Shown here one piece after another: positions 23,721 to 58,097 of a stretch of DNA of 64,000 nucleotides; the stretch's first letter is position 1; every line of letters begins with the position of its first letter. This DNA is from Clostridium sp. CAG:967 (GTDB lineage Bacteria > Cyanobacteriota > Vampirovibrionia > Gastranaerophilales > Gastranaerophilaceae), in the NCBI GenBank assembly GCA_000433095.1, contig HF991463.1:17022-81021 (forward strand), given 5' to 3'. The position numbers and the translations under genes were made by a program. The notes under the pieces were generated by a model. That model was not told the DNA's origin. It was given only the letters and a program-made list of their open reading frames with translations, and did not search any database.

Positions 23721-23730
23721 GGGGGGGGGG
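23721..23730. repeat. Homopolymeric G10 tract, intergenic, upstream of the pilin-like gene
   Basis: ...TTAATTTC GGGGGGGGGG CAACCG... Confidence 0.9.
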
Positions 23731-23766
23731 CAACCGTTTAAGCTCCTATAAAGCGTTTTGCAAGGG

Positions 23767-23794: not shown

Positions 23795-23830
23795 AGTGAT
23801 ATGTTGCATCACAATCATGGTGGGATTTTT

Positions 23831-24553
23831 ATGAAGAGAAAATTTGCTTTTACCCTTGCAGAGGACACTACGTGCGTAGCCATGTCGAAAGATTATCGTA
23901 AAGCTGCGTTTACCCTGGCAGAGGTTCTTGTCACACTCGGTATAATCGGCATTGTAGCAGCTATGACAATGCCTGTCTTAATAGCTAATCATCAGAAAAA
24001 AGAAACAGTTGCAAAGTTAAAGAAAGCCTATAGCATCCTTCAGCAGGCAACTATTTTTGCAAAACAAGAATATGGCGAGGTTAATGATTGGGATTATTCA
24101 GATCCTTATGAATTCGGGCAAAAATACTTTAAACCATATTTAAAAGTCATAGTAGACACTCAAAAAGAAATTTATTCCTGGACTGATTTAACAGGAAATT
24201 CACATTCCTATAGTACCTGGCCAACACTTATTCTGGCAGATGGAACATATATTTTTATTTATTTGGCTGATCCAGGTTATCCGGTAAATTTTCACATTGG
24301 TGTTGACATAAACGGAAAACAGAAACCTAATAAATTAGGTAGAGATTTGTTTCTTTTTACATATTATAAGAATGCTCTAAGGACATATTCTCAATATGAA
24401 ACAGGGATGCCTAATCGAAATAATGTTGTATATCCCGGAACAAGCGGGCAGTGTAATGTAGATGCGCAAGGGGGTGTAATGGGACCCGGTTCATATTGTT
24501 CTACTCTTATTGAAATGGACGGTTGGGAAATAAAAGATGATTACCCCTGGTAG
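23831..24553 (+). CDS. Prepilin-type N-terminal cleavage/methylation-domain protein (type IV pilin or pseudopilin-like); alternative starts at 23801 and 23882
   Basis: The FTLAEVLVTLGIIGIVAAM class III signal/hydrophobic segment occurs after a duplicated RK(F/A)AFTLAE leader element; GGTGG is 9 nt upstream of the ATG at 23831. Confidence 0.6.
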   Translation: MKRKFAFTLAEDTTCVAMSKDYRKAAFTLAEVLVTLGIIGIVAAMTMPVLIANHQKKETVAKLKKAYSILQQATIFAKQEYGEVNDWDYSDPYEFGQKYFKPYLKVIVDTQKEIYSWTDLTGNSHSYSTWPTLILADGTYIFIYLADPGYPVNFHIGVDINGKQKPNKLGRDLFLFTYYKNALRTYSQYETGMPNRNNVVYPGTSGQCNVDAQGGVMGPGSYCSTLIEMDGWEIKDDYPW

Positions 24554-35253: not shown

Positions 35254-36759
35254 ATGACTAAGATTATTATTCAGGCAGGCGGTAAAGGTACAAGATTAGA
35301 GGGATTGACAAGAAATAAACCGAAATGTTTAGTTCCTGTAAATAATCTGCCTATATTGTTTTATGCTTTTAAAAAGTTTCCCAGTGCTGAATTTACAATA
35401 ATTGCCGATTACAAAACAGATGTTTTGGAAAAGTATCTTGAAAGTTTTGGCAGTGAATATAATTATAAGATTGTTAAAACTCATAAGAAAGGTACCGCTT
35501 CAGGTATTAAAGAAGCTGTCAGCCATTTTTCGGATGACGAACAATTCATGATTTTATGGTGTGATTTGATATTGTCTGAAAATTTTGAAATCCCTGAAAC
35601 TAAAGGTAATTTTGTCGGAATTTCAAAAGAATTTGAATGCCGCTGGTCTTTTGATAAAAATGAATTTATACATGAACCATCGGTCGAAAAAGGTGTTGCC
35701 GGTTTGTTTATATTTGAAAATAAGAAGTATTTGGAAAATATTCCTGAAGAAGGAGCTCTTGTGCCATGGTTGAAAACTCAAAATATAAACTTTAAAGAGC
35801 TTCCTCTATACGGGTCAAAGGAAATTGGAACTATGCTGTCATATTCTGAAAACAACGAATGTACAAAAAGATGGAGGCCGTTCAATTCTATGAAGTTTGA
35901 CGGTGATATTGTTATTAAAGAAGGTATTAACGAGCAGGGAAGAAAAATCGCTGTTGATGAAAGAGCCTGGTATAAGTTTGTAAAAGATAAAGGATATGAA
36001 TTTATTCCTGAGATTTATGAGTATGAACCTTTAAAAATGAAAAAGGTTCAGGGTAAAAATATTTATGAATACGATTGCCTGACAAGAAGTCAAAAAGAGG
36101 AAATCCTGCTAAATATTATCGAAGCTCTTGAAACTTTGCATAACCTTGTTCCTGCACAGCCTGCAAATATTGAAGATACAAAAATGAACTATATACATAA
36201 AACTTTTGAAAGATTGTCAAAAATTGAAAAATTAGTTCCTTTTGCAGATAAAGAATTCATAAGAATAAACGGGCATTATTACAAGAATGTATTCTTTGAC
36301 AAAGAAAATTTCACTAATATTTTAGAAAAGATGATGCCGAAAGAATTTAAATTAATTCACGGTGACTGTACTTTTTCTAATTTGATGTTTGATACATTCA
36401 ATATGAAAACAATTTTGATAGATCCGAGAGGATATTTTGGCAAAACAAAATTATACGGTGATGTAGACTATGATTGGGCTAAACTTTATTATTCACTGAA
36501 AGGTAATTATGACCAGTTTAATCGTAAGAAATTTACGCTGGATATTAAAGAAAAAGAGGTTGAATTAGCTATAAAACCTAACAATTGGGAAGATATGGAA
36601 GAATTTTTCTTTGACAATATTCCGAACATTGATAAAAATAAAATTAAAGCTTTGCATAGTGTTATTTGGTTGTCGCTGACAACTTATGCGTGGGAAGATT
36701 ATGATTCAATTTGTGGCGCATTTTACAACGGAATAATGCTTGCGGGAGAAATGTTATAA
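35254..36759 (+). CDS. Bifunctional sugar/alcohol-phosphate nucleotidyltransferase (N) and APH/choline-kinase-like kinase (C), LicC/LicA-like
   Basis: N-terminal IIQAGGKGTRLEGLTRNKPKCLVPV (NTP_transferase G-x-G-T-R-L); C-terminal LIHGDCTFSNLMFD (HGDxxxxN Brenner motif) and ILIDPRGYFG (DFG-equivalent). Confidence 0.7.
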   Translation: MTKIIIQAGGKGTRLEGLTRNKPKCLVPVNNLPILFYAFKKFPSAEFTIIADYKTDVLEKYLESFGSEYNYKIVKTHKKGTASGIKEAVSHFSDDEQFMILWCDLILSENFEIPETKGNFVGISKEFECRWSFDKNEFIHEPSVEKGVAGLFIFENKKYLENIPEEGALVPWLKTQNINFKELPLYGSKEIGTMLSYSENNECTKRWRPFNSMKFDGDIVIKEGINEQGRKIAVDERAWYKFVKDKGYEFIPEIYEYEPLKMKKVQGKNIYEYDCLTRSQKEEILLNIIEALETLHNLVPAQPANIEDTKMNYIHKTFERLSKIEKLVPFADKEFIRINGHYYKNVFFDKENFTNILEKMMPKEFKLIHGDCTFSNLMFDTFNMKTILIDPRGYFGKTKLYGDVDYDWAKLYYSLKGNYDQFNRKKFTLDIKEKEVELAIKPNNWEDMEEFFFDNIPNIDKNKIKALHSVIWLSLTTYAWEDYDSICGAFYNGIMLAGEML

Positions 36760-37126
36760 GATGATTGAACTATCGCCATTAGCTAAAACATGGATACTGG
36801 ATGTTGACGGTACTATTGTAAAACATAACGGTCATTTAAAAGGCGGTGATGTTTTGTTAGAAGGAGTAAAAGATTTTTACTCCAGAATATCCGATGAAGA
36901 TAAAGTCATTCTTTTAACAGCAAGAAAAGATGAATATCTTGAAGATTTAAAGATGTTTTTGCATAAAAATAATATCAGATATGATTATATTCTTACAGAT
37001 ATGCCTTTTGGCGAGAGAATTCTTGTAAATGACAGAAAACCGAGCGGTTTAAATACTGCTTATGCTATCAATAAAGATAGAGATGATAAGTTAAATATTG
37101 AATTCGCAATTAATGAGGATTTGTAG
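36740..37126 (+). CDS. Small HAD-superfamily phosphatase-like protein
   Basis: 128 aa; ILDVDGTIV (HAD motif I DxDGT), LLTARKD (motif II T), ILVNDRKP (motif IV-like D); possible later start MIELS at 36761. Confidence 0.6.
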   Translation: MREKCYKMIELSPLAKTWILDVDGTIVKHNGHLKGGDVLLEGVKDFYSRISDEDKVILLTARKDEYLEDLKMFLHKNNIRYDYILTDMPFGERILVNDRKPSGLNTAYAINKDRDDKLNIEFAINEDL

Positions 37127-37189
37127 TCGTATGTCAGTCGAGTTTTTTATAATTACAAATAGATATAGAGAATTTCAAGGAGTTTATCT

Positions 37190-38428
37190 GTGAAAATATT
37201 TGGAAAGCAAAAAACAGGTAACACAATTACTTTCAGATTTCTTGGTATTGTTTTGTATAAAAAGACTATGGAATATACAATTTATGATTCAACTCATATT
37301 GTAAAATCTTTCGAGTCCTATGCAGGCGGCTTATTACAAATACACAAAGAAAAAAGAAATTTTGGTTATTATATAGAAAAAAACATTTTGTTATCAGGTA
37401 TTTCTGTTTGCAAAAAGGTCGAACATGGGAATGTTAAGACAAAATATTTTTGCGGCAGAATAGTAAAACAAAAATCAAATATTGATGAGTTAAAAAAGAC
37501 TTGTTTAAATTATTTTGATAAAAAATACGATGATATTTACGTTTTAAATGCGAACAGCGGTGAAATTTATTTATTTTTATCACATGTTTTTGATGCATTT
37601 ATAAAAAAGAATGGCAGTAAAAATCCTTTATTGGTTGCTACGAAAAAATATCATTTAGAAATAGTAAAAATGATTTGTCCTGAAATCCCTGTTATTTATC
37701 TTGATAACCCCTGTATAAAACTTAAGGACGATTGCACTGTAATCGACAATTTTCGATTCTTTGTAATATTTTCTGATATTTATTTCAGAACAATTGAGTA
37801 CAATATAAAGAATAATCCTGTAGGAGAATATCATTACTTTTCTTCAATTATTAAACATGCGGGGGTTTCAGAAAAAGATTTGAAAATGCGTAAAGCAATA
37901 GTGCCGGCAGATAGCGAAAAATCAATGTTAGAAAAAGTTTCTGAGACGGGGCTTAATATAGATAATTTTGTTATAATTGCTCCTGAAGCTAAATCGTGTG
38001 AACTTGTTGATAATCAGTTTTGGATTGATTTGATTAATGGTTACCGCAATGCAAATTACGATATATATGTTAATTTGGCGGACAACATCGTTGATTTGAC
38101 CGGTGTAGAGTATAAAAGTTGTTTTCTGACATATTCCGAACTTTTTGCACTCGCACGGAAAGCTAAGAAAATAGTTTCTTTAAGAAGCGGTTTAACAGAA
38201 TTTTTATTACAGACTAATGTTCCTACAGATGTTTTATATACAAAATTCCGTATGCGTCCGATTTTTAAAGATATGCCGGTAGAACACGTAATGTCAGGAT
38301 TTGGTATTGAAAAAATTAAGGATGTAAATTTGAATAAAGTAAGAGAATTTAACGTAGAAAAATATGATAATTCTTCTTTACTGAAAGAAATTTTAAACAT
38401 TAAGGAAAATCATTTATGCCAAAAATAA
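37190..38428 (+). CDS. Hypothetical protein, possibly GT-B/TagF-like; N-terminus carries a weak copy of the shared module
   Basis: 412 aa; GTG start with RBS AAGGAG; N-terminal MKIFGKQKTGNTITFRFLGIVLYKK; C-terminal ...IVSLRSGLTEFLL resembles the ends of GT-B-fold transferases (weak). Confidence 0.45.
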   Translation: MKIFGKQKTGNTITFRFLGIVLYKKTMEYTIYDSTHIVKSFESYAGGLLQIHKEKRNFGYYIEKNILLSGISVCKKVEHGNVKTKYFCGRIVKQKSNIDELKKTCLNYFDKKYDDIYVLNANSGEIYLFLSHVFDAFIKKNGSKNPLLVATKKYHLEIVKMICPEIPVIYLDNPCIKLKDDCTVIDNFRFFVIFSDIYFRTIEYNIKNNPVGEYHYFSSIIKHAGVSEKDLKMRKAIVPADSEKSMLEKVSETGLNIDNFVIIAPEAKSCELVDNQFWIDLINGYRNANYDIYVNLADNIVDLTGVEYKSCFLTYSELFALARKAKKIVSLRSGLTEFLLQTNVPTDVLYTKFRMRPIFKDMPVEHVMSGFGIEKIKDVNLNKVREFNVEKYDNSSLLKEILNIKENHLCQK

Positions 38429-39510
38429 CAGTTATATTACCTGTATATAATTCGCAAAAATTTATAGAACAATGTCTTAACAGTATTGTTAATCAGAGCT
38501 TAAAAGACATTGAAATTATATGCATAAATGATTTTTCTCAAGATAATTCCTGGGATATTGTCAAAAATTTTGCTCAAAATGACAGCAGATTTGTTTTGAT
38601 TGAAAACAGTGAAAATAAAAAACAGGGATATTGCAGAAATTTGGGTGTTGTTAAAGCAAAATCACCTTATATTCATTTTATTGATTCTGATGATTGGATT
38701 AATGATTTAGATTTTTATAAAAATGTGTATGAAGAAATTGTAAACAGTGATATTGATATATATGTTTTCAATTACTATGAATATCATAATGATATAAACA
38801 TCTTAGTTGAAGATGAAAAATGTAAACGTTTTCCGTTTTTATACGATAAATTTAAAATGGATACATCTTTAAAAGTTAAAGCATCAGAAATTATTCTTTC
38901 CGGTATGGCATGGGATAAAGTTTATAAAAAAGATTTTCTGATTAATAATAATATAGTTTTTGCAGAAGGTGTGTATTGGGAAGATATTTTATTTAATTTT
39001 CTCTTAAAAATCAGTTCTCCAAAAATAAGAATAACTGACAAGAAATATATTGTTTACAGATTAAATGCAGAAAATTCTACTACAACAAACATTTTAGGAA
39101 TTTGTAAAGATAGTATAAGGATGGCATATATTTCTAAAGAAATGTTGGAAAAGAACGGTTTAATTAAGAAATATAAAAAAGAATTTATAGAAAATTATCT
39201 TTGTACAATATATTTTGATATTTTAAGAAGAGTAAAAGAGAAATCTTATTTAAAATTTTTGTTGATGAAAACTGATATTAAAAAGTTTTTTAATTCACTT
39301 AATCTAACCTCAAATGATTTGGAAATGTTCAGGAATTATAATGAAGGATTATGTGATTTATTACAAGAGCTTATGAAAAGTAATTTGTATATAGACTTGT
39401 TTAAGTACATTATCAGACTTATTTTTTCAGTACGAAATACAGATAATAAGAAATTTAAGATAGTTACAATTTTAGGAATTAAGCTAAAATTCAGGAGGGG
39501 AAATGCCTAA
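38416..39510 (+). CDS. Family 2 glycosyltransferase with C-terminal shared module
   Basis: MPKITVILPVYNSQKFIEQCLNSIVNQSLKDIEIICINDFSQDNS...FIDSDDW; C-terminal FSVRNTDNKKFKIVTILGIKLKFRRG. Confidence 0.85.
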   Translation: MPKITVILPVYNSQKFIEQCLNSIVNQSLKDIEIICINDFSQDNSWDIVKNFAQNDSRFVLIENSENKKQGYCRNLGVVKAKSPYIHFIDSDDWINDLDFYKNVYEEIVNSDIDIYVFNYYEYHNDINILVEDEKCKRFPFLYDKFKMDTSLKVKASEIILSGMAWDKVYKKDFLINNNIVFAEGVYWEDILFNFLLKISSPKIRITDKKYIVYRLNAENSTTTNILGICKDSIRMAYISKEMLEKNGLIKKYKKEFIENYLCTIYFDILRRVKEKSYLKFLLMKTDIKKFFNSLNLTSNDLEMFRNYNEGLCDLLQELMKSNLYIDLFKYIIRLIFSVRNTDNKKFKIVTILGIKLKFRRGNA

Positions 39511-40564
39511 AATTTCTATAATAATACCTGTTTATAATGTTGAAAAATATTTGTCAATTTGTTTGGATAGTATATTAGCTCAGAGCTTCACTGATTTTGA
39601 AGTGATATGTATAAATGACGGATCTGACGATAAATCTTTGGAAATTCTAAATGAATATAAGAATAAGGATAGTCGTATAAGAGTTATCAGTCAGGAAAAT
39701 GCAGGAGTTTCCGCTGCAAGAAACAGAGGTTTGAATGTTGCCAATGGGGAATATATTTCGTTTGTAGACCCTGATGATTGGATAGAACCTGACTGTTATG
39801 AAATTGCTTATAATAAAGCTGTAAACACAAATGCCGATATGTTGTTTTTTGGAGCAAAATATGTAACCGATGAGATAGTAGAAGAAAAAAACTTAAAAAG
39901 TCTGTATATATGTTTAGAAGAAAATGATAATTTAAATGAAATGATACATATAACACACACAATATGGAATAAACTATTTAAAAATTCATTTTTGAAAAAA
40001 CATAATATAAAGTTTGCAGAAAATCTGAAAATTGCTGAAGATGGTGTATTTAATTATTTTTGTATATTGTCAAATCCTAACATAGTTTTTCTTCCTGTAT
40101 CTTTATATAACCACAGAATTTCTAGAGATAACTCGTTAACTACTCAGATTACACCCATTCATGATATTGAAGCATGCAAATATTTAATAAATACTGAAAT
40201 ATTTGCAAATGCAGCATATAAGTATAAAGTAATGGCATTACAAAAATTTATTATGAACATGTTATGGTGGGCAAAACAGCCCAGAGCACGCTGGAATATA
40301 TTCAAAAACAGAAAAGCCATAAATGAATTTAAAAATTATGTAATTGCTAATGTAGGAATAGATATTCTTATAGAATGTTTTAATTATCAAGAATTGAAAG
40401 ATTTTTGTAACCCAAATTATTTAGCAAAATTATTTTCGGTTAAAAACACTTATTTTGATGGACAAAAAATAAAAATTGTTAATATATTAGGCATAAAAAT
40501 TAAAATTGAAATAGGTAAGAAAAATAACAGCTTAAATAAGAAAGAAAGCTTGGAGGAAGTATGA
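39503..40564 (+). CDS. Family 2 glycosyltransferase with C-terminal shared module
   Basis: MPKISIIIPVYNVEKYLSICLDSILAQSF...INDGSDDKS...FVDPDDW; C-terminal FSVKNTYFDGQKIKIVNILGIKIKIEIG. Confidence 0.85.
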   Translation: MPKISIIIPVYNVEKYLSICLDSILAQSFTDFEVICINDGSDDKSLEILNEYKNKDSRIRVISQENAGVSAARNRGLNVANGEYISFVDPDDWIEPDCYEIAYNKAVNTNADMLFFGAKYVTDEIVEEKNLKSLYICLEENDNLNEMIHITHTIWNKLFKNSFLKKHNIKFAENLKIAEDGVFNYFCILSNPNIVFLPVSLYNHRISRDNSLTTQITPIHDIEACKYLINTEIFANAAYKYKVMALQKFIMNMLWWAKQPRARWNIFKNRKAINEFKNYVIANVGIDILIECFNYQELKDFCNPNYLAKLFSVKNTYFDGQKIKIVNILGIKIKIEIGKKNNSLNKKESLEEV

Positions 40565-42921
40565 GTAAAATCTCTATAGTAGTACCTGTATATAATGTAG
40601 AAAATTATCTTTCAAGATGTTTAAACAGTTTGTTAAATCAAACCTTAAAAGATATTGATATAATATGTGTAAATGATGGTTCAACTGACAGCTCAGTAGA
40701 AATTCTTAAAGATTTTGCCAATAAAGACAGCAGAATTAAAATTATAAACAAAGAAAACGGCGGATTGTCATCTGCACGAAACTATGGCATGAAATATGTA
40801 ACAACCGATTATGTAGGTTTTGTAGATTCCGATGATTGGGTAGAGCCTGATACTTATGAACTTGCATTGGCAGCAATGGAAAAGAATAATGTTGATTTTG
40901 TTTCCTGGGGTGCAAAAATCGTTGTGGAAAATATCGATGAAGATAATATTGGTGTGGTTTTAGCAAAAGATTATCATAATATTAAAAATGTAGGTTATAA
41001 AGAAATTAATGATTCGATTCTATGCAGGACAACCGTTACTGTTTGGAATAAATTATTTAAGACTGAAATTATTAAAGATAATAATCTTACTTTTCCAAAC
41101 GGTTTAATTTATGAAGATAATGAATTTTTCTTAAAATATGCAATTTATTGTAAAAGTGCATATTATATCGACAAATATTTATATAATTATTTACAACGTT
41201 CTAATTCTATTATAGGAAATATGTGTACTAAAAAGTCTAATAAGGCTTTAGATTATATAAAAATTTATGAAAATATTTATAAATATTATGAGAGTTTCAA
41301 TTTATTAGATAAGCATAAAGATTTAATTTCAAATAAATTTAACAGTATAATGTGGAATGCTTATAGCCATTGTCAAGATAAAAAGCTTGTGAAAAAGAAA
41401 TTAAGAGAGCTTGCTAAAAGTTTGGATAATGATATTTTGCAAAATGAAAATATTCATTTAATCAAAAAAAATAAATTCCATAAAATAAATAATTTGAATG
41501 TGTCAAAAATAGATTTTGGCAATAGATTGTTGGGTTTTGAGGAAAAACGTGATAAAATCATTTTCAAACTTTTGGGAATAAAAATTTCATTAAAAAAACA
41601 AATGATTTTTTCTAAGAAAAAAGAAAACAATAAAAAGATATTCAGGATATTAGGAATAAAATTTACGTTCAAAGATAAAAAAGCTGTATTAGATAACAGA
41701 TTTAATGATTTGTACTATAAATTAAATCAACAAAAAATTGCATTTGATAAAGATATTGAAAATAATTTGGAGTTAACAAAATACTTCATGGAAGATAAAC
41801 TTTTGTCAGATGCTAAGAATAATCAATTTAAAGGCAGATATCCTGATTTTGACAATAAAATCAAAGAATATGTAAAAGATTTTGATAAATTCTATTTCTA
41901 TCCGAATGTCGGTAATATGGGCGACGGTATTATTGCCGAAGCAGAATATCAAATTTTAAATAACGGTAAATATAATTACAGCATTGTTGATAATTACTCC
42001 GGGCAATCTTTTGCACCGTGTGAAGATTATAATCTTGTATACGGCGGAGGCGGACTTTTCGTAAAATATTGGAATTATCAAAAAGTCTTAGATATTTTTA
42101 GAGATAAAAATCTCAAAAAATGTGTTGTACTGCCATCAAGTTTTTTTGAATGTGATGATGTTCTTGAATGCTTTGATGAAAGATTTACGGTATTTTGCCG
42201 TGAAGAATTCAGCTATAAATACTGTATCTCTAAAAATAACAGAGCAAAATTTATTCAGGCAGATGATATGGCATTTTCTTTAAACCTTGATTTGCAGGAA
42301 AAATACGATGTTCAAAAAATTAAAGAGAATATTCAATATTTAAGCAATAAGGATTTATCGGTTCTTGTTAATATAATTTATCCTAAAATAAAAAAGTTAT
42401 ACCAAAACGTGCAGTGTGCATTGAATGAAAAAACTGTAATAAATTCAAATAAAGTCAGAATAGGATATTTATTACGCACTGATGCAGAAAAGAAGTCAGA
42501 AAAAACAGCTTTTCCAAGTATGGATTTATCAATTTTTGCGAACAGCCCTTGCACTGATACCGGAGTTGTAGGTCTTATTTCAAGAGTATTTATTGAAACT
42601 TTAAATTCATTTGATATTATTATAACAGACAGATTACATATAGGTTTGGTTTCTTCCCTTTTGGGAAAAGAAGTTTATCTTTTAGATAATTCTTACAAAA
42701 AAGTTTCCGGAATTTATGAGTATTCAATGCAATCATACAAAAATACACATATAATATCATCAGTTAATGATATAAGTATAGATAACCTGAAAACAAAAAC
42801 TTCCAAAGCAGATCTGAATATTTTAAATAATACATTTAATATCGAAAAGTTTTTCAACTTATATCTCAGCAAACTTAAATATGAAAAAACAATTAAAAAT
42901 ACAATATGGAGTGTAAAATAA
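40561..42921 (+). CDS. Fusion: family 2 glycosyltransferase (N) + two tandem shared modules + polysaccharide pyruvyl transferase-like domain (C)
   Basis: N-terminal MSKISIVVPVYNVENYLSRCLNSLLNQT...VNDGSTDSS...FVDSDDW; linker IIFKLLGIKISLKKQ and KIFRILGIKFTFKDKK; C-terminal FYFYPNVGNMGDGIIAEAEYQ...VYGGGGLF (PS_pyruv_trans PNxGNxGD + GGG motifs). Confidence 0.7.
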   Translation: MSKISIVVPVYNVENYLSRCLNSLLNQTLKDIDIICVNDGSTDSSVEILKDFANKDSRIKIINKENGGLSSARNYGMKYVTTDYVGFVDSDDWVEPDTYELALAAMEKNNVDFVSWGAKIVVENIDEDNIGVVLAKDYHNIKNVGYKEINDSILCRTTVTVWNKLFKTEIIKDNNLTFPNGLIYEDNEFFLKYAIYCKSAYYIDKYLYNYLQRSNSIIGNMCTKKSNKALDYIKIYENIYKYYESFNLLDKHKDLISNKFNSIMWNAYSHCQDKKLVKKKLRELAKSLDNDILQNENIHLIKKNKFHKINNLNVSKIDFGNRLLGFEEKRDKIIFKLLGIKISLKKQMIFSKKKENNKKIFRILGIKFTFKDKKAVLDNRFNDLYYKLNQQKIAFDKDIENNLELTKYFMEDKLLSDAKNNQFKGRYPDFDNKIKEYVKDFDKFYFYPNVGNMGDGIIAEAEYQILNNGKYNYSIVDNYSGQSFAPCEDYNLVYGGGGLFVKYWNYQKVLDIFRDKNLKKCVVLPSSFFECDDVLECFDERFTVFCREEFSYKYCISKNNRAKFIQADDMAFSLNLDLQEKYDVQKIKENIQYLSNKDLSVLVNIIYPKIKKLYQNVQCALNEKTVINSNKVRIGYLLRTDAEKKSEKTAFPSMDLSIFANSPCTDTGVVGLISRVFIETLNSFDIIITDRLHIGLVSSLLGKEVYLLDNSYKKVSGIYEYSMQSYKNTHIISSVNDISIDNLKTKTSKADLNILNNTFNIEKFFNLYLSKLKYEKTIKNTIWSVK

Positions 42922-45059
42922 TGGAAAAAGATAAAATTAAACGATTTATAGATTGTTATGTGCCTGTAACTACTTGCAATTTAAGATGTCATTATTGCTA
43001 TATTACACAGCAGAGAAAGTTCGATGCTTGTTTGCCCGAGTTCAAATATTCTGCTGACCATATTGCAAAAGCTTTGTCTAAAGAAAGACTTGGAGGTGTT
43101 TGCTGTATAAACTTTTGTGGCGGAGGAGAAACTTTATTGCCTCCTGAAATGATTAGCATTATTAGAAAGTTATTGGAAGAAGGTCATTATATAATGGTCG
43201 TTACTAATGGTACTGTTTCCAAAAGATTTGACGAAATTGCCCAAATGCCTAAGGAACTCTTAGAAAGACTTTTCTTCAAATTTTCTTTCCATTATTTAGA
43301 ACTTAAAAGAATTAATATGATGGATAAATTCTTTGATAATATTAGAAAAGTAAGAGATGCAGGTGCTTCTTTCACTCTTGAAATTACTCCGAGTGATGAG
43401 TTAATTCCATATATTGATGAAGTCAAAGAGGTTGCTTTAAAAAATGTTAAAGCCCTTCCTCATATTACGGTTGCACGTGATAATACACAATACGAACTGC
43501 CGATTTTAACATCTCATTCAAAAGCAGAGTATAAAAATATCTGGGGACAATTTAAATCAGGATTGTTCAATTATAAATATTCAGTATTTAACAAAAAACG
43601 AAAAGAATTTTGTTATGCAGGTGATTGGACTTTCTATCTGAATATAGGTACAGGAGAAATGAAACAATGCTATAAAGGTGATATTCTCCAAAATATTTAT
43701 GAAAATGTAGATGAACCTATCCGCTTTAGAGTTGTAGGCAACAACTGCAGGGAATCTCATTGTTACAATGCCCACGCATTTTTAACTTTCGGTGCAATTC
43801 CGGAACTTAAATCTCCTACTTATACTGAAATGAGAGATAGGGAATGTACTGACGGAACCCACTGGTGCGGAGAAAAAGTCAGAGATTTCTTCTCGCAAAA
43901 ATTAGTTAACAGTAACAAGACATTAAGTTTGAAACAGAAAAGAAAAATTAACAAAATGTACAGAAAAAATAAATCTGTTAAATTATTGGAACAAGTATTT
44001 TCAGTTAAAAATGATTGTCCTAATAATAATGAAAAATCTCATAAAATTGTTACTGTTATGGGAGCACGAATAAAATTTAAAGTAAAGAATAAAAAATTCT
44101 TGCAAAATCAAATTTGTTCTTTAAAACAGGAGATTAATACATTAAAAGAAAACCAAAAAAACATAAGATTATATCTTGAGCTTGAAAGACTTGACAGACA
44201 AATAAAAGAAATGGCTCCTAAGGACCAGATGATATTTGTTTGTATCAACGGTATAGGCGATACTATGTTGTATGCTTCTTACTGGAAAGAACTTGAAGCC
44301 AAATACGGTACAAAAATATTCTGGGTGGTTGTTAAATCTCATGAAGTAATCATGAAAATGTACGGTATTACAAATTATATGGTTCTTGAAACTATGAGCG
44401 TTCAAAAACAAGGGACATTCTCAGAAGCAATCAATATGACAACCAAACCAGTCAAGGGTATTCCTTTCTACGCTCACTGGACATATAACAAAACTACACG
44501 TGTTAAAGAAGATTATTTCTTGGATTTTGTAAGAAATTCAATGGATTTAAAAGGCTTACCTTTAAACCACCCTGTTTGGTATCCTGAAATAAATGATGAT
44601 TTAAAAGCTAAAATTGCTTGTATAAAAGATTTAAACAAAACTGTATTAATTTCACCTGATGCAAGATGGTTACCGCTTAATGATGTAAATTTGTGGAATT
44701 CGTTAATAAAAGAACTCAAGGCAGAAGGTTTCGAAATTATAGTTAACGACTTTTTACATAAGTTAAAATTAAACGGAGCCGTCTGCTGTTCTGATTTTAC
44801 AACAGAAGAACTTGTAGCTTTATCACACAATTGTTATGCGACAGTTTCTCCAAGAAGCGGATTTACTGATATAATGCATGAACTCGGTGAAAAACTGTTT
44901 GTTATTTATTCAAATTGTGATTGGAAAAAATTGTTTACTTTAAACAGAATTTGTTCTACATCTGATGTAAATGAATATGTTAATACTCCTGATTTCAATG
45001 TAAAACAAGTCGTAAAAGATATTAAAAAAATATCTTGTAAAGAGGCAGCTAAAGTATGA
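42906..45059 (+). CDS. Fusion: radical SAM domain (N) + shared module + coiled coil + GT9 (heptosyltransferase)-like domain (C)
   Basis: CNLRCHYC (CX3CX2C) and GGGETLL (GGE SAM motif); mid FSVKNDCPNNNEKSHKIVTVMGARIKFKV; C-terminal MIFVCINGIGDTMLYASYW ... VLISPDARWLPLNDVNLWNSLIKELKAEGFEIIVN resembles the GT9 fold. Confidence 0.6.
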   Translation: MECKIMEKDKIKRFIDCYVPVTTCNLRCHYCYITQQRKFDACLPEFKYSADHIAKALSKERLGGVCCINFCGGGETLLPPEMISIIRKLLEEGHYIMVVTNGTVSKRFDEIAQMPKELLERLFFKFSFHYLELKRINMMDKFFDNIRKVRDAGASFTLEITPSDELIPYIDEVKEVALKNVKALPHITVARDNTQYELPILTSHSKAEYKNIWGQFKSGLFNYKYSVFNKKRKEFCYAGDWTFYLNIGTGEMKQCYKGDILQNIYENVDEPIRFRVVGNNCRESHCYNAHAFLTFGAIPELKSPTYTEMRDRECTDGTHWCGEKVRDFFSQKLVNSNKTLSLKQKRKINKMYRKNKSVKLLEQVFSVKNDCPNNNEKSHKIVTVMGARIKFKVKNKKFLQNQICSLKQEINTLKENQKNIRLYLELERLDRQIKEMAPKDQMIFVCINGIGDTMLYASYWKELEAKYGTKIFWVVVKSHEVIMKMYGITNYMVLETMSVQKQGTFSEAINMTTKPVKGIPFYAHWTYNKTTRVKEDYFLDFVRNSMDLKGLPLNHPVWYPEINDDLKAKIACIKDLNKTVLISPDARWLPLNDVNLWNSLIKELKAEGFEIIVNDFLHKLKLNGAVCCSDFTTEELVALSHNCYATVSPRSGFTDIMHELGEKLFVIYSNCDWKKLFTLNRICSTSDVNEYVNTPDFNVKQVVKDIKKISCKEAAKV

Positions 45060-45649
45060 TTTTAACTTATCATAAAGTTTCATTTATCAAAAATGATAAA
45101 ATTACCGTTAATGTTTGGAATTTTATCATGCAGATGTATGCAATAAGAAAAAAAATTGTTGTATATCTCGACGATTATGACTTGAATGATAATAATCAGG
45201 TTGTTTTAAGGTTTGACGACGGTTACAAAAGTGTATTAAAATATGCTGTACCTGTTCTTAAATTCTTTGGTTATCCTTTTGAAGTTTTTATTGTTGAAGA
45301 TTTCTTTAACAGAGGAGAAAAAGGTGATAAAAATTTTTTAAATAAAAAAGATTTGGAGAAGATAATAAAATCAGGAGGTCGACTTCAATATCATACAAAA
45401 TCCCATCCGGATTTAAGTATCATTGAAGATGAAGAAATCTTAAAAACAGAATTGATTTGTCCTGAATATATTAAGCAACTGGATAAAAACGGCTTTAAAT
45501 TCTTGGCATATCCTTTTTGGAAATATAATTCCAAATCAATTGAATATGTTCAAAAATTATATAATGGAGCTTGTTCGGGTAACGGCTTTGCTGAAAATAA
45601 TAAATATTCTATGGATGGAATAAGGGTAGAGGCAAATACTAAAATATAA
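45056..45649 (+). CDS. Polysaccharide deacetylase (CE4 / NodB-homology) family protein
   Basis: 197 aa; VLRFDDGYKS (NodB motif 1 DDG), HTKSHPDL (His-His metal motif). Confidence 0.65.
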   Translation: MILTYHKVSFIKNDKITVNVWNFIMQMYAIRKKIVVYLDDYDLNDNNQVVLRFDDGYKSVLKYAVPVLKFFGYPFEVFIVEDFFNRGEKGDKNFLNKKDLEKIIKSGGRLQYHTKSHPDLSIIEDEEILKTELICPEYIKQLDKNGFKFLAYPFWKYNSKSIEYVQKLYNGACSGNGFAENNKYSMDGIRVEANTKI

Positions 45650-45659
45650 AGGAGAAATT

Positions 45660-46865
45660 ATGTCTAAATTGTTGGAAAATATATTATCTGTGAAAAATCA
45701 TGGAGATCATAAAACTTTTACTTTAATGGGAGTAAAGTTTAGATTTAGAAATGAAAAAGTTATACAAAAAAGAATTCTTTCAGGTTTATATGAAACCAGA
45801 GATAATATTGCTAAACTAAGCAGCAAGGTTGTATGCGTTAATAATGAAGAAAGAAAGAAATGGGTAATCGAAAATATTGGCAACAAAGACTTTTATGAAC
45901 AAGAATTGCTTATATACAATACTTTTGAACAGATGAAAGCAAGAAAACTTTATCCTGTTTTCAGAGATAGAATTTCAAGAGGTAAAATGATTTTGTCTAT
46001 GAAAGTTTTTCAAGAGCGTTATCCTGAATATAACGGGTTCTTATTTACAGATGTCCAGGGATTAGAAAATGATTTTAAGGTTTATAACAAAGATGATATT
46101 AAGAGTATGAACCCGGATACTGATATGGCAATTCTTGCATATAATCAGGATTATGTTGCTCTGGATTTAATCGACGAGCTTAATAAATATAATATAAAAT
46201 ATTATGCGGCTATACAGTCCTTTCCTCATGCAAGATATTTTCATACGGATGAAAATGCCTTAAAAGTTTTAGATGAAGAATCAATGTCTGACAGCTGGCA
46301 TTTCTGTCCGGTAGATTTTGAAAATATATTTCAGGCTATTAAGGCAAGCAATACACTCGAAGGTGATTACGTTGAAATAGGTACTTTTAAAGGAGATTCA
46401 GCTTCTGCTGCCTTAAATTATATGAAGAAAACAGGTATAAATAAAAGAGCATATTTTATTGATACATACGAAGGTTTTAATTATGAACAAGCTTTTAAAT
46501 CCAATGATACTTTTTGGAAAAAGGGGCATACAAATACTTCTTATGACAATGTTAAAGAAAGACTGTCAAAATATGATAATGCAAATGTCGTTAAAGGTAA
46601 TATAATTTCTGATGAGTTGCCGGCTGAGATTGAGAAAATTTGTGTTGCAAATATTGATGTTGACCTGTATGAAGCAGTAAAAGCAGCATTATATAAGGTT
46701 AAAGATAAAGTAGTGAAAAATGGTATAATTATTGCTGAAGACTACGGGCACACTCCGACTTTAATCGGCGGACAAAAAGCGGTAGATGAATTTATTGAAG
46801 AAAATAAAAACGATTTCATTCCTCTTTATATGAACAGCGGACAAATGTTTTTAATTAAAAAATAA
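45660..46865 (+). CDS. TylF/MycF-family class I SAM-dependent O-methyltransferase with N-terminal shared module
   Basis: N-terminal ILSVKNHGDHKTFTLMGVKFRFRN; C-terminal GDYVEIGTFKGDSA (SAM GxG) and NIDVDLYEAVKAAL (TylF-family hID.DLYEsT motif). Confidence 0.7.
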   Translation: MSKLLENILSVKNHGDHKTFTLMGVKFRFRNEKVIQKRILSGLYETRDNIAKLSSKVVCVNNEERKKWVIENIGNKDFYEQELLIYNTFEQMKARKLYPVFRDRISRGKMILSMKVFQERYPEYNGFLFTDVQGLENDFKVYNKDDIKSMNPDTDMAILAYNQDYVALDLIDELNKYNIKYYAAIQSFPHARYFHTDENALKVLDEESMSDSWHFCPVDFENIFQAIKASNTLEGDYVEIGTFKGDSASAALNYMKKTGINKRAYFIDTYEGFNYEQAFKSNDTFWKKGHTNTSYDNVKERLSKYDNANVVKGNIISDELPAEIEKICVANIDVDLYEAVKAALYKVKDKVVKNGIIIAEDYGHTPTLIGGQKAVDEFIEENKNDFIPLYMNSGQMFLIKK

Positions 46866-46882
46866 TAGGAAATTTATAACAA

Positions 46883-49750
46883 ATGCAAAAAGAGCTTTTA
46901 AAGAATATATTTAATAAAATAAAAGAAAACTCCAATATTAATTTATCACTTATTCAACAAAATTCTTTGAAAATTAACCTTGAACGCCAGGTAGGTTATA
47001 TTTGTAAAGATAGGCATAGTGAATACAAAAAATATTGGCTGACTTTGGCATTTTCTGATGCTCAAAAATACCGTTTAAAAAAGACTGTAGATAATATAAC
47101 AGATAAATCATTAGTTTGGTCTAAATATTTTGAATTTATTATGCCTGTTTCATACGGTGAATGTGATAATGTCTATTATGTCTTATATCCTTTCCTAGAG
47201 AATACATCTAGAGGTCAATATGGTGATGTCAAGATTTATGAAGATATTTTATATGATATTTATGAAAAAGAATCTTATACTGTGAAACTTACTCCGGAAA
47301 AGATTAATGAAATTATGAATAGTATTGTAGAAGAAAGATGTCCTGATAATACTATAAGCCGGGAAAATTTCATTAATAGTGAAGCTTTTATTGAATATAG
47401 AGAACTTTTAAGCAGTTACGATGAGATAGAAATGGTTCGTTCTCATTGCGATTTTAAACCCCAAAACATAATAAATTGTCAAAATAAAAAATATTTAATA
47501 GGATTTGAATTCGGCGGAATTGATTTGCCGGTCGGATTTGATTTATTCTGCCTCAGACGTGGCACTGTTGAGAAAAATTATTCTGATGTTCCGTATAAAG
47601 AACTTCATGAGATATTTTGCAAATTCCATCATGTGGGAGATGGTGTATCATGGTTAAAATATTGCAATCCGATTGTAAAACTTGATAAGGGACGTCAATT
47701 TATTAAAATTCTTGAAAATGGAAAATTCACAACTATTGATATTAAGCAAAATTTTCCTATTTATAAACTCGATTTGTTAATTGATTTTCAAAATATAGAA
47801 ATTTCTTCAGCAGCTGTATTTAAGCTGGTTAAACTGATTTATAAAAAATATAATAATAACTATATAATAAGATTTCAAAATTGTCCTTTCTGGTTCGAAA
47901 GGCTTACACAGGATGAGGAAAACGTGCTTTCGTTTTCGGGTGTAATTAATAAAGACTATGAAGAACCTAAAAATTTTATTGATTATTTAAAATCTACACA
48001 GGCTTATGTAAATTATTCTAAAATTATGCCTTATGTTAAACCATACTGGTTTAGAGCACTGTTAGCAGTTCTCATTTGTATCCCTATAGGTTCTTTGGAT
48101 GCTGTAATTGCTTTATCTTTAAAACCTTATATGGATTTGGTTATGGTTGACAAATCAGTTCAATCGCCAATGTATATTCCTTTTGCAATTGTAGCTTTTA
48201 CATCTGTTCAGGGATTTTTAAATTATTTTGCGACTTATATGAACACCTGGGTTGGAACAAAAATTACAAACGACCTGAAGTTTGATTTGTATAAAAAAAT
48301 GCTTACCCTGGAAACAGCTTATTTTGATAAGAAGAAATCCGGAGATATTGTTTTTAGATTTAATAACGATGCAGATGCTGCCTGTGCAGGACTGTTAGAT
48401 AATTTAAAAACTTTTGTTTCAAGATTATTTTCTTCTCTTTCGCTTGTATGTGTATTATTTTATAATTCATGGCAGCTTGCATTGATTGCTGTATTTGTTC
48501 TTGGATGCGCATTTTTACCGTTGACCAAAATCCGTAAGAGAATTAAGGATGTTCTTGATAAATCTATTTCAATTACAGCCTCAATTATTACTTCGTATAA
48601 TGAAAGTTTTGCAGGAAACAAAACTATCGCTTCTTATAATCTTGATAAGATTCAGGAAACAAAATTTAAAAATATTTTAAATTCATTATTTTCTTTAAAA
48701 ATAAAACTTATTCAACGAACTTCATGGTTGTCACCTATGATGCACGTTATAGTATCTGTAGGTATCGGGATAGCTATAGCTTACGGAAGTCATTTAATTT
48801 TGACAAATCAAATTACAAGCGGTAATTTTGTTTCATTTATTACTGCTTTAATTATGTTGTATACTCCTATTAAAAATCTCGGCAATAACTTTAATGCTGT
48901 TCAATTTTCTTTCCTGGCTATTGAAAGAGTATTTAGTATACTTGAGTCAGAACCTAAGATTAAAGATAGTGAAAATGCCGTTGTATTAAATAATATTGGA
49001 ACAATAGAATTTAAAGACGTTAATTTTGAATATGTTAGAAATAAACCTGTGTTAAAAAATATAAATTTAAAAGTAACAGCAGGAGAAACTATTGCTCTGG
49101 TTGGGAACTCCGGAGGTGGAAAATCAACTATAGTAAGTCTTATTCCAAGATTTTATGATGTTGTATCAGGTGGAATATTAATTGACGGCATAGATATCAG
49201 AAATCTGACACTTAAATCTTTAAGACAAAATATTGCTATTGTTTTTCAGGACAATTTCTTGTTTTCCGGAACCATAAGAGATAATGTTATGCTGGGGAAT
49301 GAAAATGCGACTGAAAAGGATGTTGAGAAAGCCATTAAAATGGCATATCTCGATGATTTTATAGCAGGGTTGTCAAATGGTTTGGATACGCAAATAGGCG
49401 AACGTGGAATTCTTTTATCAGGCGGGCAAAAGCAAAGAGTTGCAATTGCACGTGCTTTTCTTAAGAATGCTCCAATTGTAATTTTAGATGAGGCAACTTC
49501 TGCTTTGGACAATAAAGCAGAGGCAATTGTTCAGAAGGCTATTGACAATTTAATGCAGGATAAAACAGTATTTGTAATCGCTCACAGACTTTCTACAATC
49601 CAGAATGCTGATAAAATTGTAGTTATTAATGAAGGTGAAATCGCTGAAACCGGAAACCATGAAGAACTTCTTAAGATTGATAACGGCGCATACAAAATGC
49701 TTTATGAAATGCAATTTAAAAAGCAGGCAGCAGAAGTATTAGCAAAGTAA
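46883..49750 (+). CDS. Fusion: APH/choline-kinase-like domain (N, ~370 aa) + MsbA/PglK-type ABC exporter (six-TM domain + NBD)
   Basis: HCDFKPQNII (HxDxxxxN) and LIGFEFGG in the N-domain; TM region; Walker A GNSGGGKST, signature LSGGQKQRVAIARAF, Walker B ILDEATSALD, H-loop AHRLST. Confidence 0.8.
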   Translation: MQKELLKNIFNKIKENSNINLSLIQQNSLKINLERQVGYICKDRHSEYKKYWLTLAFSDAQKYRLKKTVDNITDKSLVWSKYFEFIMPVSYGECDNVYYVLYPFLENTSRGQYGDVKIYEDILYDIYEKESYTVKLTPEKINEIMNSIVEERCPDNTISRENFINSEAFIEYRELLSSYDEIEMVRSHCDFKPQNIINCQNKKYLIGFEFGGIDLPVGFDLFCLRRGTVEKNYSDVPYKELHEIFCKFHHVGDGVSWLKYCNPIVKLDKGRQFIKILENGKFTTIDIKQNFPIYKLDLLIDFQNIEISSAAVFKLVKLIYKKYNNNYIIRFQNCPFWFERLTQDEENVLSFSGVINKDYEEPKNFIDYLKSTQAYVNYSKIMPYVKPYWFRALLAVLICIPIGSLDAVIALSLKPYMDLVMVDKSVQSPMYIPFAIVAFTSVQGFLNYFATYMNTWVGTKITNDLKFDLYKKMLTLETAYFDKKKSGDIVFRFNNDADAACAGLLDNLKTFVSRLFSSLSLVCVLFYNSWQLALIAVFVLGCAFLPLTKIRKRIKDVLDKSISITASIITSYNESFAGNKTIASYNLDKIQETKFKNILNSLFSLKIKLIQRTSWLSPMMHVIVSVGIGIAIAYGSHLILTNQITSGNFVSFITALIMLYTPIKNLGNNFNAVQFSFLAIERVFSILESEPKIKDSENAVVLNNIGTIEFKDVNFEYVRNKPVLKNINLKVTAGETIALVGNSGGGKSTIVSLIPRFYDVVSGGILIDGIDIRNLTLKSLRQNIAIVFQDNFLFSGTIRDNVMLGNENATEKDVEKAIKMAYLDDFIAGLSNGLDTQIGERGILLSGGQKQRVAIARAFLKNAPIVILDEATSALDNKAEAIVQKAIDNLMQDKTVFVIAHRLSTIQNADKIVVINEGEIAETGNHEELLKIDNGAYKMLYEMQFKKQAAEVLAK

Positions 49751-49771: not shown

Positions 49772-50957
49772 TTGGAAAATATTAAACAATCAATAAAAAT
49801 AAAAAATATTGAGTTTTTACGATTTATTTTTTCTATATTTATTGTATATTTTCATCTTGTTGCAGGTTATTTATATATAAAGTTAGGTGATTCCGTTGAG
49901 TTATATAATAAATTACATCACCACTGCAACGGGCAATTATGTGTAGAATACTTTTTTGTAATTGCAGGTTTCTTTTTAATTACAAAAACTAATTTTAATA
50001 CTGATATAATAGACTTTGCAAAGAAAAAAATTATTAGATTATGGCCTGTTCTGGCTTTTACGATATGTTTATACTGGCTTTTATCTTTATTTACTCCAAT
50101 AGAATTTTGCAAGTACTCTAATCTTCTTACTATTTTATTAATTGATAATATAGGAATAAATACGGCTTTTGGCAACATGATTTCAACATGGTTTGTATCT
50201 GCATTATTTTGGTGTACTCTTCTGTATTTTTATATATTAAAAAACGTGTCTTCAAAACATGTAAATTTTTTAATAGTATCGCTGGTAATTTTGGCATTAT
50301 CTGCAAAAATTCATTCAAACGGAATGTCTTCTAAAGATGTATTTGTTCTTAATAATATAGGTTTATTAAGAGGAATTTATTGTATTGGTTTGGGATATTT
50401 TATAGGTAAGATATTCCTGAAAACTCGGGGGGGGGGGGGTTTTTTTGCTTTTGATAATATTTGGAAAAATTGGGGGGCGGTTTTCAGCTTTAGACAATAT
50501 ATGGAAAAAATTAATATATACGGGTATAGAGGGTTATCTTTTGATAACGGTTGTTTACAATACTGTATGTTATAAGTCTAAATCGCCTGATATTTATTTG
50601 TTTTATCTCATTACTTTTTGTTTATTGTTCTGGCTTTTTGTTAATCAAAAAGGCTATTTGAGTAAGTTATTTAATCAAAATTTTTCTGTATTTTTAGGCA
50701 AATATTCTTATTCAATATTTATAATACATCCTGTTGTACTTAACCTTTTCAGAGAATATATATGGAAAATACATCCGAATTTTGTTATAAGTTACCCGAT
50801 AATTAATTTGTTTGTGCCGCTTGTTTGTTCTGTTTTGGCAGGAATTGTTGTTTATCATCTGGTAGAAAAACCTGCATATAATTACCTTAAATCAAAATGG
50901 TTTCCCGTTAAAACAAATGCTGATAATTTGAATAATATTATACTTTCTTCGCATTAA
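49772..50957 (+). CDS. Acyltransferase family 3 (OatA/OafA-like) membrane O-acyltransferase, split by a +1 frameshift at a G13/T7 tract (candidate phase-variable gene, currently OFF)
   Basis: N-terminal part 49772-50575 (NIEFLRFIFSIFIVYFHL, an acyltransferase_3 start); C-terminal part in the +1 frame 50445-50957 (YSIFIIHPVV..., ends AYNYLK); removing one G joins the frames. Confidence 0.7.
50427..50439. repeat. Homopolymeric G13 tract immediately followed by T7, inside the acyltransferase gene
   Basis: AAACTC GGGGGGGGGGGGG TTTTTTT GC. Confidence 0.9.
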
Positions 50958-57227: not shown

Positions 57228-58097
57228 ATGAAAGTAAATTCTATACAACGTGATATGTCCCTAAAGCAGGGAAGTTTAACGCTCCATTCGGAACCTCAGA
57301 ACTTCAGAGAGAAGAATAGTGCGGGCGTGTATAAAAATAATGACAATAGAGGATATAATGCAGCATATAGCGGCAGTTTTACGGGTAAGAGTGAAGCTGC
57401 CGCTACTGCTTTTAAGAAGGGGGGGATTCTTATCAAGAATTGGTTCAAGAAGGGCGGAATTCTTACCAAGAATTGGTTCAGCAGTTTTCTTTCTTATTCT
57501 TATAATCATAATATTTCAACAAGTGCATTGATTGCATTAGGATTGGCAGGTGTTTTAAGACCTGCAACAATCATGGCGCTCCCCGGCAAAAAAGATAAGG
57601 AAGATAAAATTTATGCCTCCGGTCACTCAATGGCATCAGGTATAATCGGTTTTGTAGCATCAACAATTATTACAAGTCCGTTTGATGAATCTATTAAAAA
57701 AGTTTTTGGTGATCCTGAAAAATATAAGAGCAAAAAATTAACCAAAATGCTTAGAATTGAAAAAGCTTTAGAACAAAGAGCATCGTTAAAGAATGCAGCA
57801 GGCGAAATAATCAATACTAAATCTAAGCAGTTATTAAAAAATATCGGAAAACACAAGGGTGCAATGGAAGTTCTTGTTAAGAACGTTCCTGATTGGATTA
57901 TTGCAGTACCGAGAGCAACATTAACAATTGCACTTATTCCTCCAATTCTTAAATACGTATTTGGTGTTGAAAAGAAAAAGAAACCCGAAACCCCAAACAC
58001 CGCTGATACAAAAACAGTTGACAGTAATATGGAAACACCTAAAATGGATTTTATAGAAAAACCTGCTTTTCAGCAATTCAAAGGAGGTGTTAAATAA
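57228..58097 (+). CDS. Hypothetical membrane protein with internal tandem 11-aa repeat
   Basis: 289 aa; KKGGILIKNWF KKGGILTKNWF repeat (33-nt tandem DNA repeat); hydrophobic segments ISTSALIALGLAGVL and IIGFVASTIITSPF. Confidence 0.45.
   Translation: MKVNSIQRDMSLKQGSLTLHSEPQNFREKNSAGVYKNNDNRGYNAAYSGSFTGKSEAAATAFKKGGILIKNWFKKGGILTKNWFSSFLSYSYNHNISTSALIALGLAGVLRPATIMALPGKKDKEDKIYASGHSMASGIIGFVASTIITSPFDESIKKVFGDPEKYKSKKLTKMLRIEKALEQRASLKNAAGEIINTKSKQLLKNIGKHKGAMEVLVKNVPDWIIAVPRATLTIALIPPILKYVFGVEKKKKPETPNTADTKTVDSNMETPKMDFIEKPAFQQFKGGVK

Follow-up and report, generated by a model that had tools for sequence, protein, structure and literature searches.

The window, a stretch of 64,000 nucleotides from Clostridium sp. 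CAG:967 (a member of the Gastranaerophilales), carries an acyltransferase-3 (AT3) gene that is split in two at a poly-G tract. As judged by comparison with public assemblies, this locus can credibly be regarded as a poly-G contingency switch acting on a surface-glycan acyltransferase. The reading preferred here, with a probability of about 0.78, joins a real switch of this kind with an artefactual break of the gene in the CAG:967 record. An earlier note, made from the window letters, had proposed a slipped-strand ON/OFF switch caught in the OFF state at G13. The switch part of this proposal stands, as the tract behaves in this manner across public assemblies; the G13 state of the window does not appear to be genuine, since assemblies of the same strain carry G11 in frame at this place.

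The gene as assembled in the window consists of the following features, the last three of which are defined by alignment to L003, a contig of the same strain from sample SAMEA7045160:

49772–50957, + strand: AT3-only (Acyl_transf_3, Pfam PF01757) O-acyltransferase gene, assembled form

49772–50575, + strand: N-terminal open reading frame (ORF) with a TTG start, 267 amino acids (aa), identical to CCY62359.1 (Clostridium sp. CAG:967)

50445–50957, + strand: alternative C-terminal ORF in the +1 frame, 170 aa

50541–50957, + strand: C-terminal gene call, 138 aa, identical to CCY62360.1

50427–50439, + strand: apparent G13, by ungapped alignment the true G11 tract, a C read as G (50438), and the next G (50439)

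50427–50471, + strand: first copy, error-laden, 45 nt, comprising the tract and its true 3' flank

50472–50515, + strand: second copy, comprising G6 (the tail of the true tract), then CGGTTTTCAGCTTTAGACAATATATGG and the genuine downstream sequence

The window letters read AAAACTC-G13 (50427–50439)-T7 (50440–50446)-GCTTTTGATAATATTTGGAAAAATT-G6 (50472–50477)-CGGTTTTCAGCTTTAGACAATATATGG. The G13 and T7 runs, the ORFs 49772–50575 and 50445–50957, and two imperfect direct repeats had all been described before and are present as described. Residues beyond approximately 222 of the 267-aa ORF are out-of-frame read-through, and the C-terminal gene call carries the conserved YSYSIFIIH and YHLVEKP regions. 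The 267-aa and 138-aa products, as well as a 637-aa product encoded elsewhere in the window, have exact counterparts among the NCBI proteins of "Clostridium sp. CAG:967". In silico edits to G12, G15, or T6 give a single ORF of 394–395 aa, as had been predicted; edits to G11 or G14 do not restore the frame of the window sequence. The repaired window protein matches PF01757 with 96.2 bits (gathering score 31) over residues 11–360 and profile positions 2–323 of 326, which bears out the proposed acyltransferase-3 identity.

Contigs of the same locus, all from gut metagenomes, were found by exact-protein look-ups with the neighboring ATP-binding cassette (ABC) exporter and with variant acyltransferase products. 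In five samples (L003 and L013–L016), they equal the window throughout the approximately 3,290 positions aligned on either side of the tract. At the tract itself, these five have CTC-G11-CGTTTTTCAGC, and their gene codes for an unbroken Acyl_transf_3 protein of 381 aa. This native allele of the same-strain assemblies has a length of 1146 nt and is intact in L002, L003, and L013–L016; the window carries 40 extra bases compared with it. When aligned by BLAST over 14.9 kb, L003 and the window form two blocks without gaps, and 38 nt of L003 belong to both blocks. The only mismatches over this length are seven: 50438, 50445, 50446, 50452, 50455, 50461, and 50480. The first six fall into the first copy and are all A/C-to-G/T substitutions, accompanied by one lost A. 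Aligned without gaps, G13-T7-GCTTTTGATAATATTTGGAAAAATT of the window equals G11-CGTTTTTCAGCTTTAGACAATATATGGAAAAAATT apart from the changes C>G, C>T, A>T, A>T, C>T, and A>T and one missing A. The true sequence being G11-CG-T5-CA, the apparent T7 is T5 plus a CA read as TT. The second copy restarts at G6-CGG-TTTTCAGC and features a single difference, T to G at 50480. The junction of the copies reads GGAAAAATT-GGGGGG-CGGTTTTCAGC, that is, TGGAAAAATT directly followed by GGGGGGCGG.

First and second copy together are the 27-nt direct repeats that the earlier note had interpreted as a duplication buffering either frame—they are better described as an error-laden copy of real downstream sequence in tandem with this sequence. 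Likewise, the G12 edit does not yield the native protein of 381 aa, as had been assumed, but one of 394 aa in which 13 residues, VFLLLIIFGKIGG, are a spurious insert. The only contig from which the 267-aa product is on record is that of Clostridium sp. CAG:967. A 29-mer specific for the insert has no match in JGI metagenomes; this zero is weak evidence because the collection contains little of this organism, a scan with the 20-nt left flank having returned one unrelated chance match (L026).

The 40 extra bases, the frame break of the window, and the 27-nt direct repeats are very probably an assembly artefact of the public record, because a recent genuine duplication should give identical copies and these differ by seven changes in 43 nt, compared with none in the other 14.8 kb. 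The uniform direction of the first-copy substitutions, from A/C to G/T, suggests a contig end of poor quality. Such an end would have run through the G tract into low-quality sequence (G11-CG-T5-CA read as G13-T7) and would have been joined head-to-tail to the next contig, which begins within the same tract (G6-CGG). A misjoin of two contig ends at the G run is thus the presumed origin of the artefact. Four-colour Illumina chemistry uses separate laser channels for A/C and for G/T, a circumstance the conclusion does not need. The true state of the window strain is most likely G11 and hence ON. An import of the first copy from a sister lineage (lineage 2, described below) by chimera formation or gene conversion was considered and rejected: compared by eye, the copy has approximately three mismatches per 25 nt to lineage 1 and lineage 2 alike. 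As its fit to lineage 2 does not exceed that to lineage 1, miscalls are preferred. A real ancient duplication was likewise rejected, given flanks identical to those of assemblies without it.

Assembly failures at G tracts of this genome take several forms, all of which produce false split genes. L001 (about 9548–9558) and L006 carry an 11-N gap with approximately 50 nt missing at the acyltransferase tract, L004 ends inside the acyltransferase G run, and L008 (8306–8359) features N10 followed by C44 at a different tract, the G10 at 29512.

The comparison of tract lengths in related genomes, suggested by the earlier note as a check, revealed G9, G10, and G11 and both in-frame and out-of-frame alleles in three lineages. 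These lineages (100, 74, and 58% protein identity) carry the G run at the same codon. Lineage 1, the window species, occurs in two haplotypes. In the AAAACTC haplotype, the tract is G11 in frame (six loci) and G9 out of frame (L005). In the AAAACCTC haplotype, it is G10 in frame (L080; proteins P0127 and P0130) and out of frame either as G9 (L017–L022) or as G11 (L023–L025). Lineage 2, with 74% protein identity, has G10 in frame at the DNA level; its truncated products on record correspond, read back from the protein sequences, to G9 and G11. One divergent strain of this lineage carries G9-T, an interrupted in-frame tract. Lineage 3, with 58% identity, features G11 in frame (L069–L074, 12 contigs); out of frame are G10 (L061–L068, at least 24 contigs) and a TTTC-G10 variant (L057–L060). 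The rough OFF share amounts to one-third of the contigs in lineage 1, one-quarter in lineage 2, and the majority in lineage 3.

The tract state differs between contigs that are otherwise almost identical, with 0–1 other differences per 2.3–3.3 kb: L017/L023, L019–L022/L024–L025, L067/L069, L068/L072–L074, and L057/L073. These five near-identical pairs or groups are ON/OFF or OFF/OFF contrasts. The first of them, G9 in L017 (S129) and G11 in L023 (S130), has a common BioSample prefix (SAMN06233224) and identical flanks. Different samples of the same haplotype share the same length—G9 in L019, L021, and L022; G11 in L024 and L025—and several tract variants appear in both Logan and ENA, which together argues against random noise. 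The short runs flanking the tract are also polymorphic. One-base insertions or deletions directly 5' of the G run (window 50420–50426) shift which G length is in frame: the extra C of the AAAACCTC haplotype in lineage 1 (L017–L025, L080) makes the in-frame length G10 instead of G11, and the 5' edge in lineage 3 is either T3 (ATGTTTC, L057–L060) or T4 (ATGTTTTC, L061–L074).

Between the lineages, dN/dS is 0.15–0.24 upstream of the tract and 0.28–0.35 downstream of it, at dS of 0.6–1.4. Selection on the gene is, by these values, purifying both before and behind the tract. None of the OFF alleles examined showed a lesion other than that at the tract, and their downstream ORF of 138–170 aa is free of further stops. 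Homologues at 44–47% identity feature ordinary residues at the tract position. A scan of species-representative genomes returned only relatives of at most 47% identity and neither the window species nor the two sister lineages, so the conservation of the tract is judged only from the exact-protein look-ups.

A gain or loss of G by slippage would shift the frame and cut the protein short after approximately 222 residues. This would remove the C-terminal 40% with its conserved motifs and would switch off the glycan modification in a heritable and presumably reversible way; strand slippage is the presumed mutational process. The product of approximately 222 residues is expected to be inactive because the last hydrophobic segments and the conserved C-terminal motifs are missing.

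Three other explanations have to be weighed against a real switch combined with an artefactual break. That the record is correct as it stands—with a real G13 (OFF), a real local duplication, and a 394-aa enzyme turned on by the loss of one G—is extremely improbable. The record does read so, the 394-aa ORF opened by the G12 form still matches Acyl_transf_3, and both repeat copies encode an xDNIWK peptide. However, recent tandem copies should match, and the seven differences in 43 nt stand against none in the remaining 14.8 kb of L003; in addition, the first-copy substitutions are unidirectional, the product is known from one contig only, and the 13-residue insert occurs in no relative of the three lineages. 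It is also very unlikely that the gene decays irreversibly, being a pseudogene in many strains with the G tract as the commonest site of inactivation. The frequency of OFF alleles, in particular their majority in lineage 3, would agree with decay, but the OFF alleles examined are broken at the tract only, dN/dS downstream of the tract is not near 1, and ON alleles are interspersed with OFF alleles among haplotypes 0–1 differences apart, with the tract kept in all three lineages.

Sequencing or assembly noise at a difficult homopolymer, with the gene always ON and the G9, G10, and G11 differences being technical, is unlikely. In its favor, assemblies do fail at these homopolymers, as shown by N-gaps, contig ends, and C44, the window itself being such a failure. 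Against it, the length follows the haplotype across independent samples and two assembly pipelines, two-base differences occur (G9 versus G11), the out-of-frame G10 of lineage 3 is commoner than the in-frame form (at least 24 contigs versus 12), and the run has persisted at this codon position over dS of approximately 1 even though GGG is the rarest Gly codon. Several points weigh against a real poly-G switch. The tract lengths were read from assembled contigs and protein records, not from reads, and long G runs are difficult for Illumina chemistry and assemblers, so that some of the length variation could be technical. Another long run of the window, the G10 tract at 23721, was found as G10 in nine of nine copies, tandem gene copies included, so length variation is no automatic property of long G runs in this genome. 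The alleles were sampled via look-ups of variant proteins, and Logan and ENA may hold the same run twice, which makes the ON:OFF ratios rough. Since the tract length partly tracks the haplotype, switching may be slow rather than rapid. Finally, O-acylation of a glycan is deduced only from family membership and gene neighborhood.

The acyltransferase features the motifs of its family, in part with substitutions. AT3 proteins carry an R/K-X10-H motif in transmembrane helix (TMH) 1 with an invariant catalytic His (H25 in OafA), an FFXISG motif in TMH2 whose F and G are invariant, and an RXXR motif in loop 2–3/TMH3 that is highly, not absolutely, conserved (PMC7448272). In the protein studied here, the first motif reads R17-FIFSIFIVYF-H28, with R17 and H28 invariant in an alignment of 11 sequences. 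The second reads FFVIAG (residues 61–66), with Ser replaced by Ala and F61 and G66 invariant in the same alignment. At the RXXR position stands K86-I-I-R89, with a Lys in first place and an invariant second Arg. A crude Kyte–Doolittle scan yields 8–10 hydrophobic stretches, approximately 10 TMHs being typical of the family. The poly-G encodes codons 219–223 in a hydrophilic loop past the sixth hydrophobic segment, that is, in a GGG loop between the stretches 198–217 and 258–280. The R-X10-H, FFVIAG, and KIIR motifs all lie upstream of the tract; YSYSIFIIH and YHLVEKP lie downstream. No SGNH/GDSL domain was matched in Pfam, and the protein stops at 381 aa, approximately 20 residues past the AT3 match. 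As judged by this domain content, the enzyme is of the AT3-only type (Oac/WbaK) and not an AT3-SGNH fusion (OafA/OafB/OatA/PglI). Its relatives are likewise annotated as PF01757, and the nearest homologues among species representatives are metagenome-assembled genomes of Candidatus Gastranaerophilales.

The acyltransferase is the last gene of a same-strand run that begins at 35254 and contains a glycan cluster:

35254–49750, + strand: upstream glycan-synthesis cluster, defined by Pfam scan, with the gene order kept in other assemblies

This cluster encodes a fusion of NTP-transferase and APH-like (nucleotidyltransferase/kinase-like) domains, three GT2 enzymes, a GT2-pyruvyltransferase fusion, a radical SAM protein, a NodB-type deacetylase, a TylF-type methyltransferase, and a 955-aa ABC exporter. 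AT3 enzymes are characterized by acyl-CoA-dependent O-acylation of extracytoplasmic glycans. That of the window may be taken to O-acylate, and probably O-acetylate, the glycan made and exported by this cluster. Two of the cluster proteins have unusual architectures: the exporter (46883–49750) carries an N-terminal extension of approximately 380 residues without a Pfam hit and with a kinase-like HCDFKPQN motif inside, and the nucleotidyltransferase (35254–36759, 501 aa) is fused to an APH/choline-kinase-like domain. These two features suggest a phospho-substituent or a chain-terminating glycan modification.

Long G runs are overrepresented in the window. At a G+C content of 33%, three runs of at least ten G occur (23721, 29512, and 50427), compared with 0.0018 expected; GGG makes up 9% of the Gly codons. 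The two further runs are:

29512–29521, + strand: second G10 tract, in frame, in the 637-aa ORF 28783–30696 (no Pfam hit on record)

23721–23730, + strand: third G10 tract, in a 13-codon mini-ORF (MKRFINFGGGATV followed by a stop)

The tract at 29512 probably forms another contingency locus of this genome, as indicated by database forms of 248, 255, 258, and 259 aa that end just past it (EYEYNGGGQP or NGGGGSLKANSYL, each followed by a stop). A divergent 730-aa form of the protein carries SNGAALKQ and no tract. The use of this tract as a stable control for noise was dropped: it is G10 in six fetched loci, but the protein cluster holds the truncated forms that end at the tract. The tract at 23721 precedes a pilin-like gene (DUF6613/N_methyl, 23801–24553) by approximately 70 nt, and G11 would fuse the mini-ORF in frame to this gene. 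In some strains, G10 and a conserved leader of approximately 70 nt precede each of two tandem pilin-like genes (L007 at 1628 and 2573; L012 at 1635 and 2577). A shorter run of G7 (57419–57425) is situated inside the ORF 57228–58097.

Other Gastranaerophilales species carry a homologous AT3 gene with G10–G11 at its extreme 3' end, the products ending in RGGG, or instead feature G10–G12 within the adjacent NodB-type deacetylase gene:

L033, 4106–4115; L038, 4143–4153; L040, 4113–4123: tracts at the 3' end of the AT3 gene

L036, 4297–4308; L037, 4315–4324: G10–G12 tracts within the deacetylase gene

Poly-G thus recurs in glycan-modification genes across the order. The sequences 3' of several unrelated G tracts resemble each other, for example G10-CAGCCTTTTAAGC, G10-CAGCCTTAAAGC, G10-CAGCTTTCAGC, and G10-CAGTTTTTAGC:

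Window 23731–23750, 29522–29540, and 50478–50495; L075 from 2191; L033 from 4116: similar sequences 3' of G tracts

This likeness may reflect chance, shared origin, or constraint.

Switching of this kind has been described in several systems. PglI of Neisseria meningitidis and Neisseria gonorrhoeae is a pilin-glycan O-acetyltransferase that is turned ON and OFF via a coding polyG repeat (PMC10425976) and carries an AT3 domain in an AT3-SGNH architecture (PMC9558356). It is the closest precedent because it combines the AT3 domain, coding polyG switching, and the modification of a surface glycan. The protein of the window differs by being AT3-only with 381 aa, by its phylum, and by the lack of a close sequence relationship. 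In addition, PglI targets an O-linked protein glycan, whereas the gene of the window adjoins an ABC-exporter glycan cluster. OafA of Haemophilus influenzae, the O-acetylase of the lipooligosaccharide (LOS) heptose III, is an AT3 protein as well; it is phase variable via a simple-sequence repeat, and its ON or OFF state is selected in hosts (PMC9558356, PMC6479036). The likeness to OafA lies in an AT3 protein switched by a simple-sequence repeat. However, the OafA repeat is a tetranucleotide and not a homopolymer, and its switching was shown experimentally in a pathogen, whereas the switch proposed here comes from comparative metagenomics alone.

Oac of Shigella phage Sf6 and WbaK of Salmonella group E are AT3-only O-antigen acetylases (PMC7448272, PMC9558356). 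They resemble the protein of the window as stand-alone AT3 enzymes of approximately 330–400 aa with R/K-X10-H, FFXISG-type, and RXXR-type motifs, in place of which the protein here has KIIR for RXXR and FFVIAG for FFXISG. Both act on an exported glycan repeat unit. To our knowledge, switching by repeats does not occur in Oac or WbaK. Campylobacter jejuni carries several G9–G13 coding tracts in capsule and LOS modification genes that are turned ON and OFF (PMC8437040, PMC13317227). The likeness to the window lies in an AT-rich genome with poly-G in surface-glycan modification genes; the differences lie in the enzymes, which are MeOPN and sugar transferases, in the phylum, and in the experimental demonstration. 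The capsule O-acetyltransferase gene wciZ of Streptococcus pneumoniae (serotype 15B/15C) is toggled by a change in repeat length; in this case, TA dinucleotides make up the repeat, and S. pneumoniae is a Gram-positive pathogen. A literature search found no report of repeat-mediated phase variation in Gastranaerophilales.

The Gastranaerophilales are non-photosynthetic Cyanobacteriota (Melainabacteria) and widespread uncultured members of the human gut. For this order, the real tract constitutes good comparative evidence for repeat-driven ON/OFF switching of surface-glycan acylation. The mechanism is known from Neisseria, Haemophilus, and Campylobacter, and the finding would extend a known strategy to a new phylum and not add a new strategy. 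The split gene of the database entries CCY62359.1 and CCY62360.1 is most likely an assembly artefact, and no biological meaning should be read into the 27-nt repeat. More generally, poly-G in AT-rich metagenome bins breaks assemblies and leaves pseudo-duplications, N-gaps, and poly-C runs that can mimic biology. The chances are about even that the Gastranaerophilales run a poly-G "phasome" like that of Campylobacter or Neisseria, with several G10–G12 tracts switching independently of each other inside human hosts. Its members may include the AT3 gene, the 3' ends of its homologues, the adjacent NodB deacetylases, the 637-aa protein, and the tracts upstream of the pilin-like genes. If true, this would amount to combinatorial surface variation in an uncultured commensal that could be read straight from metagenomes.

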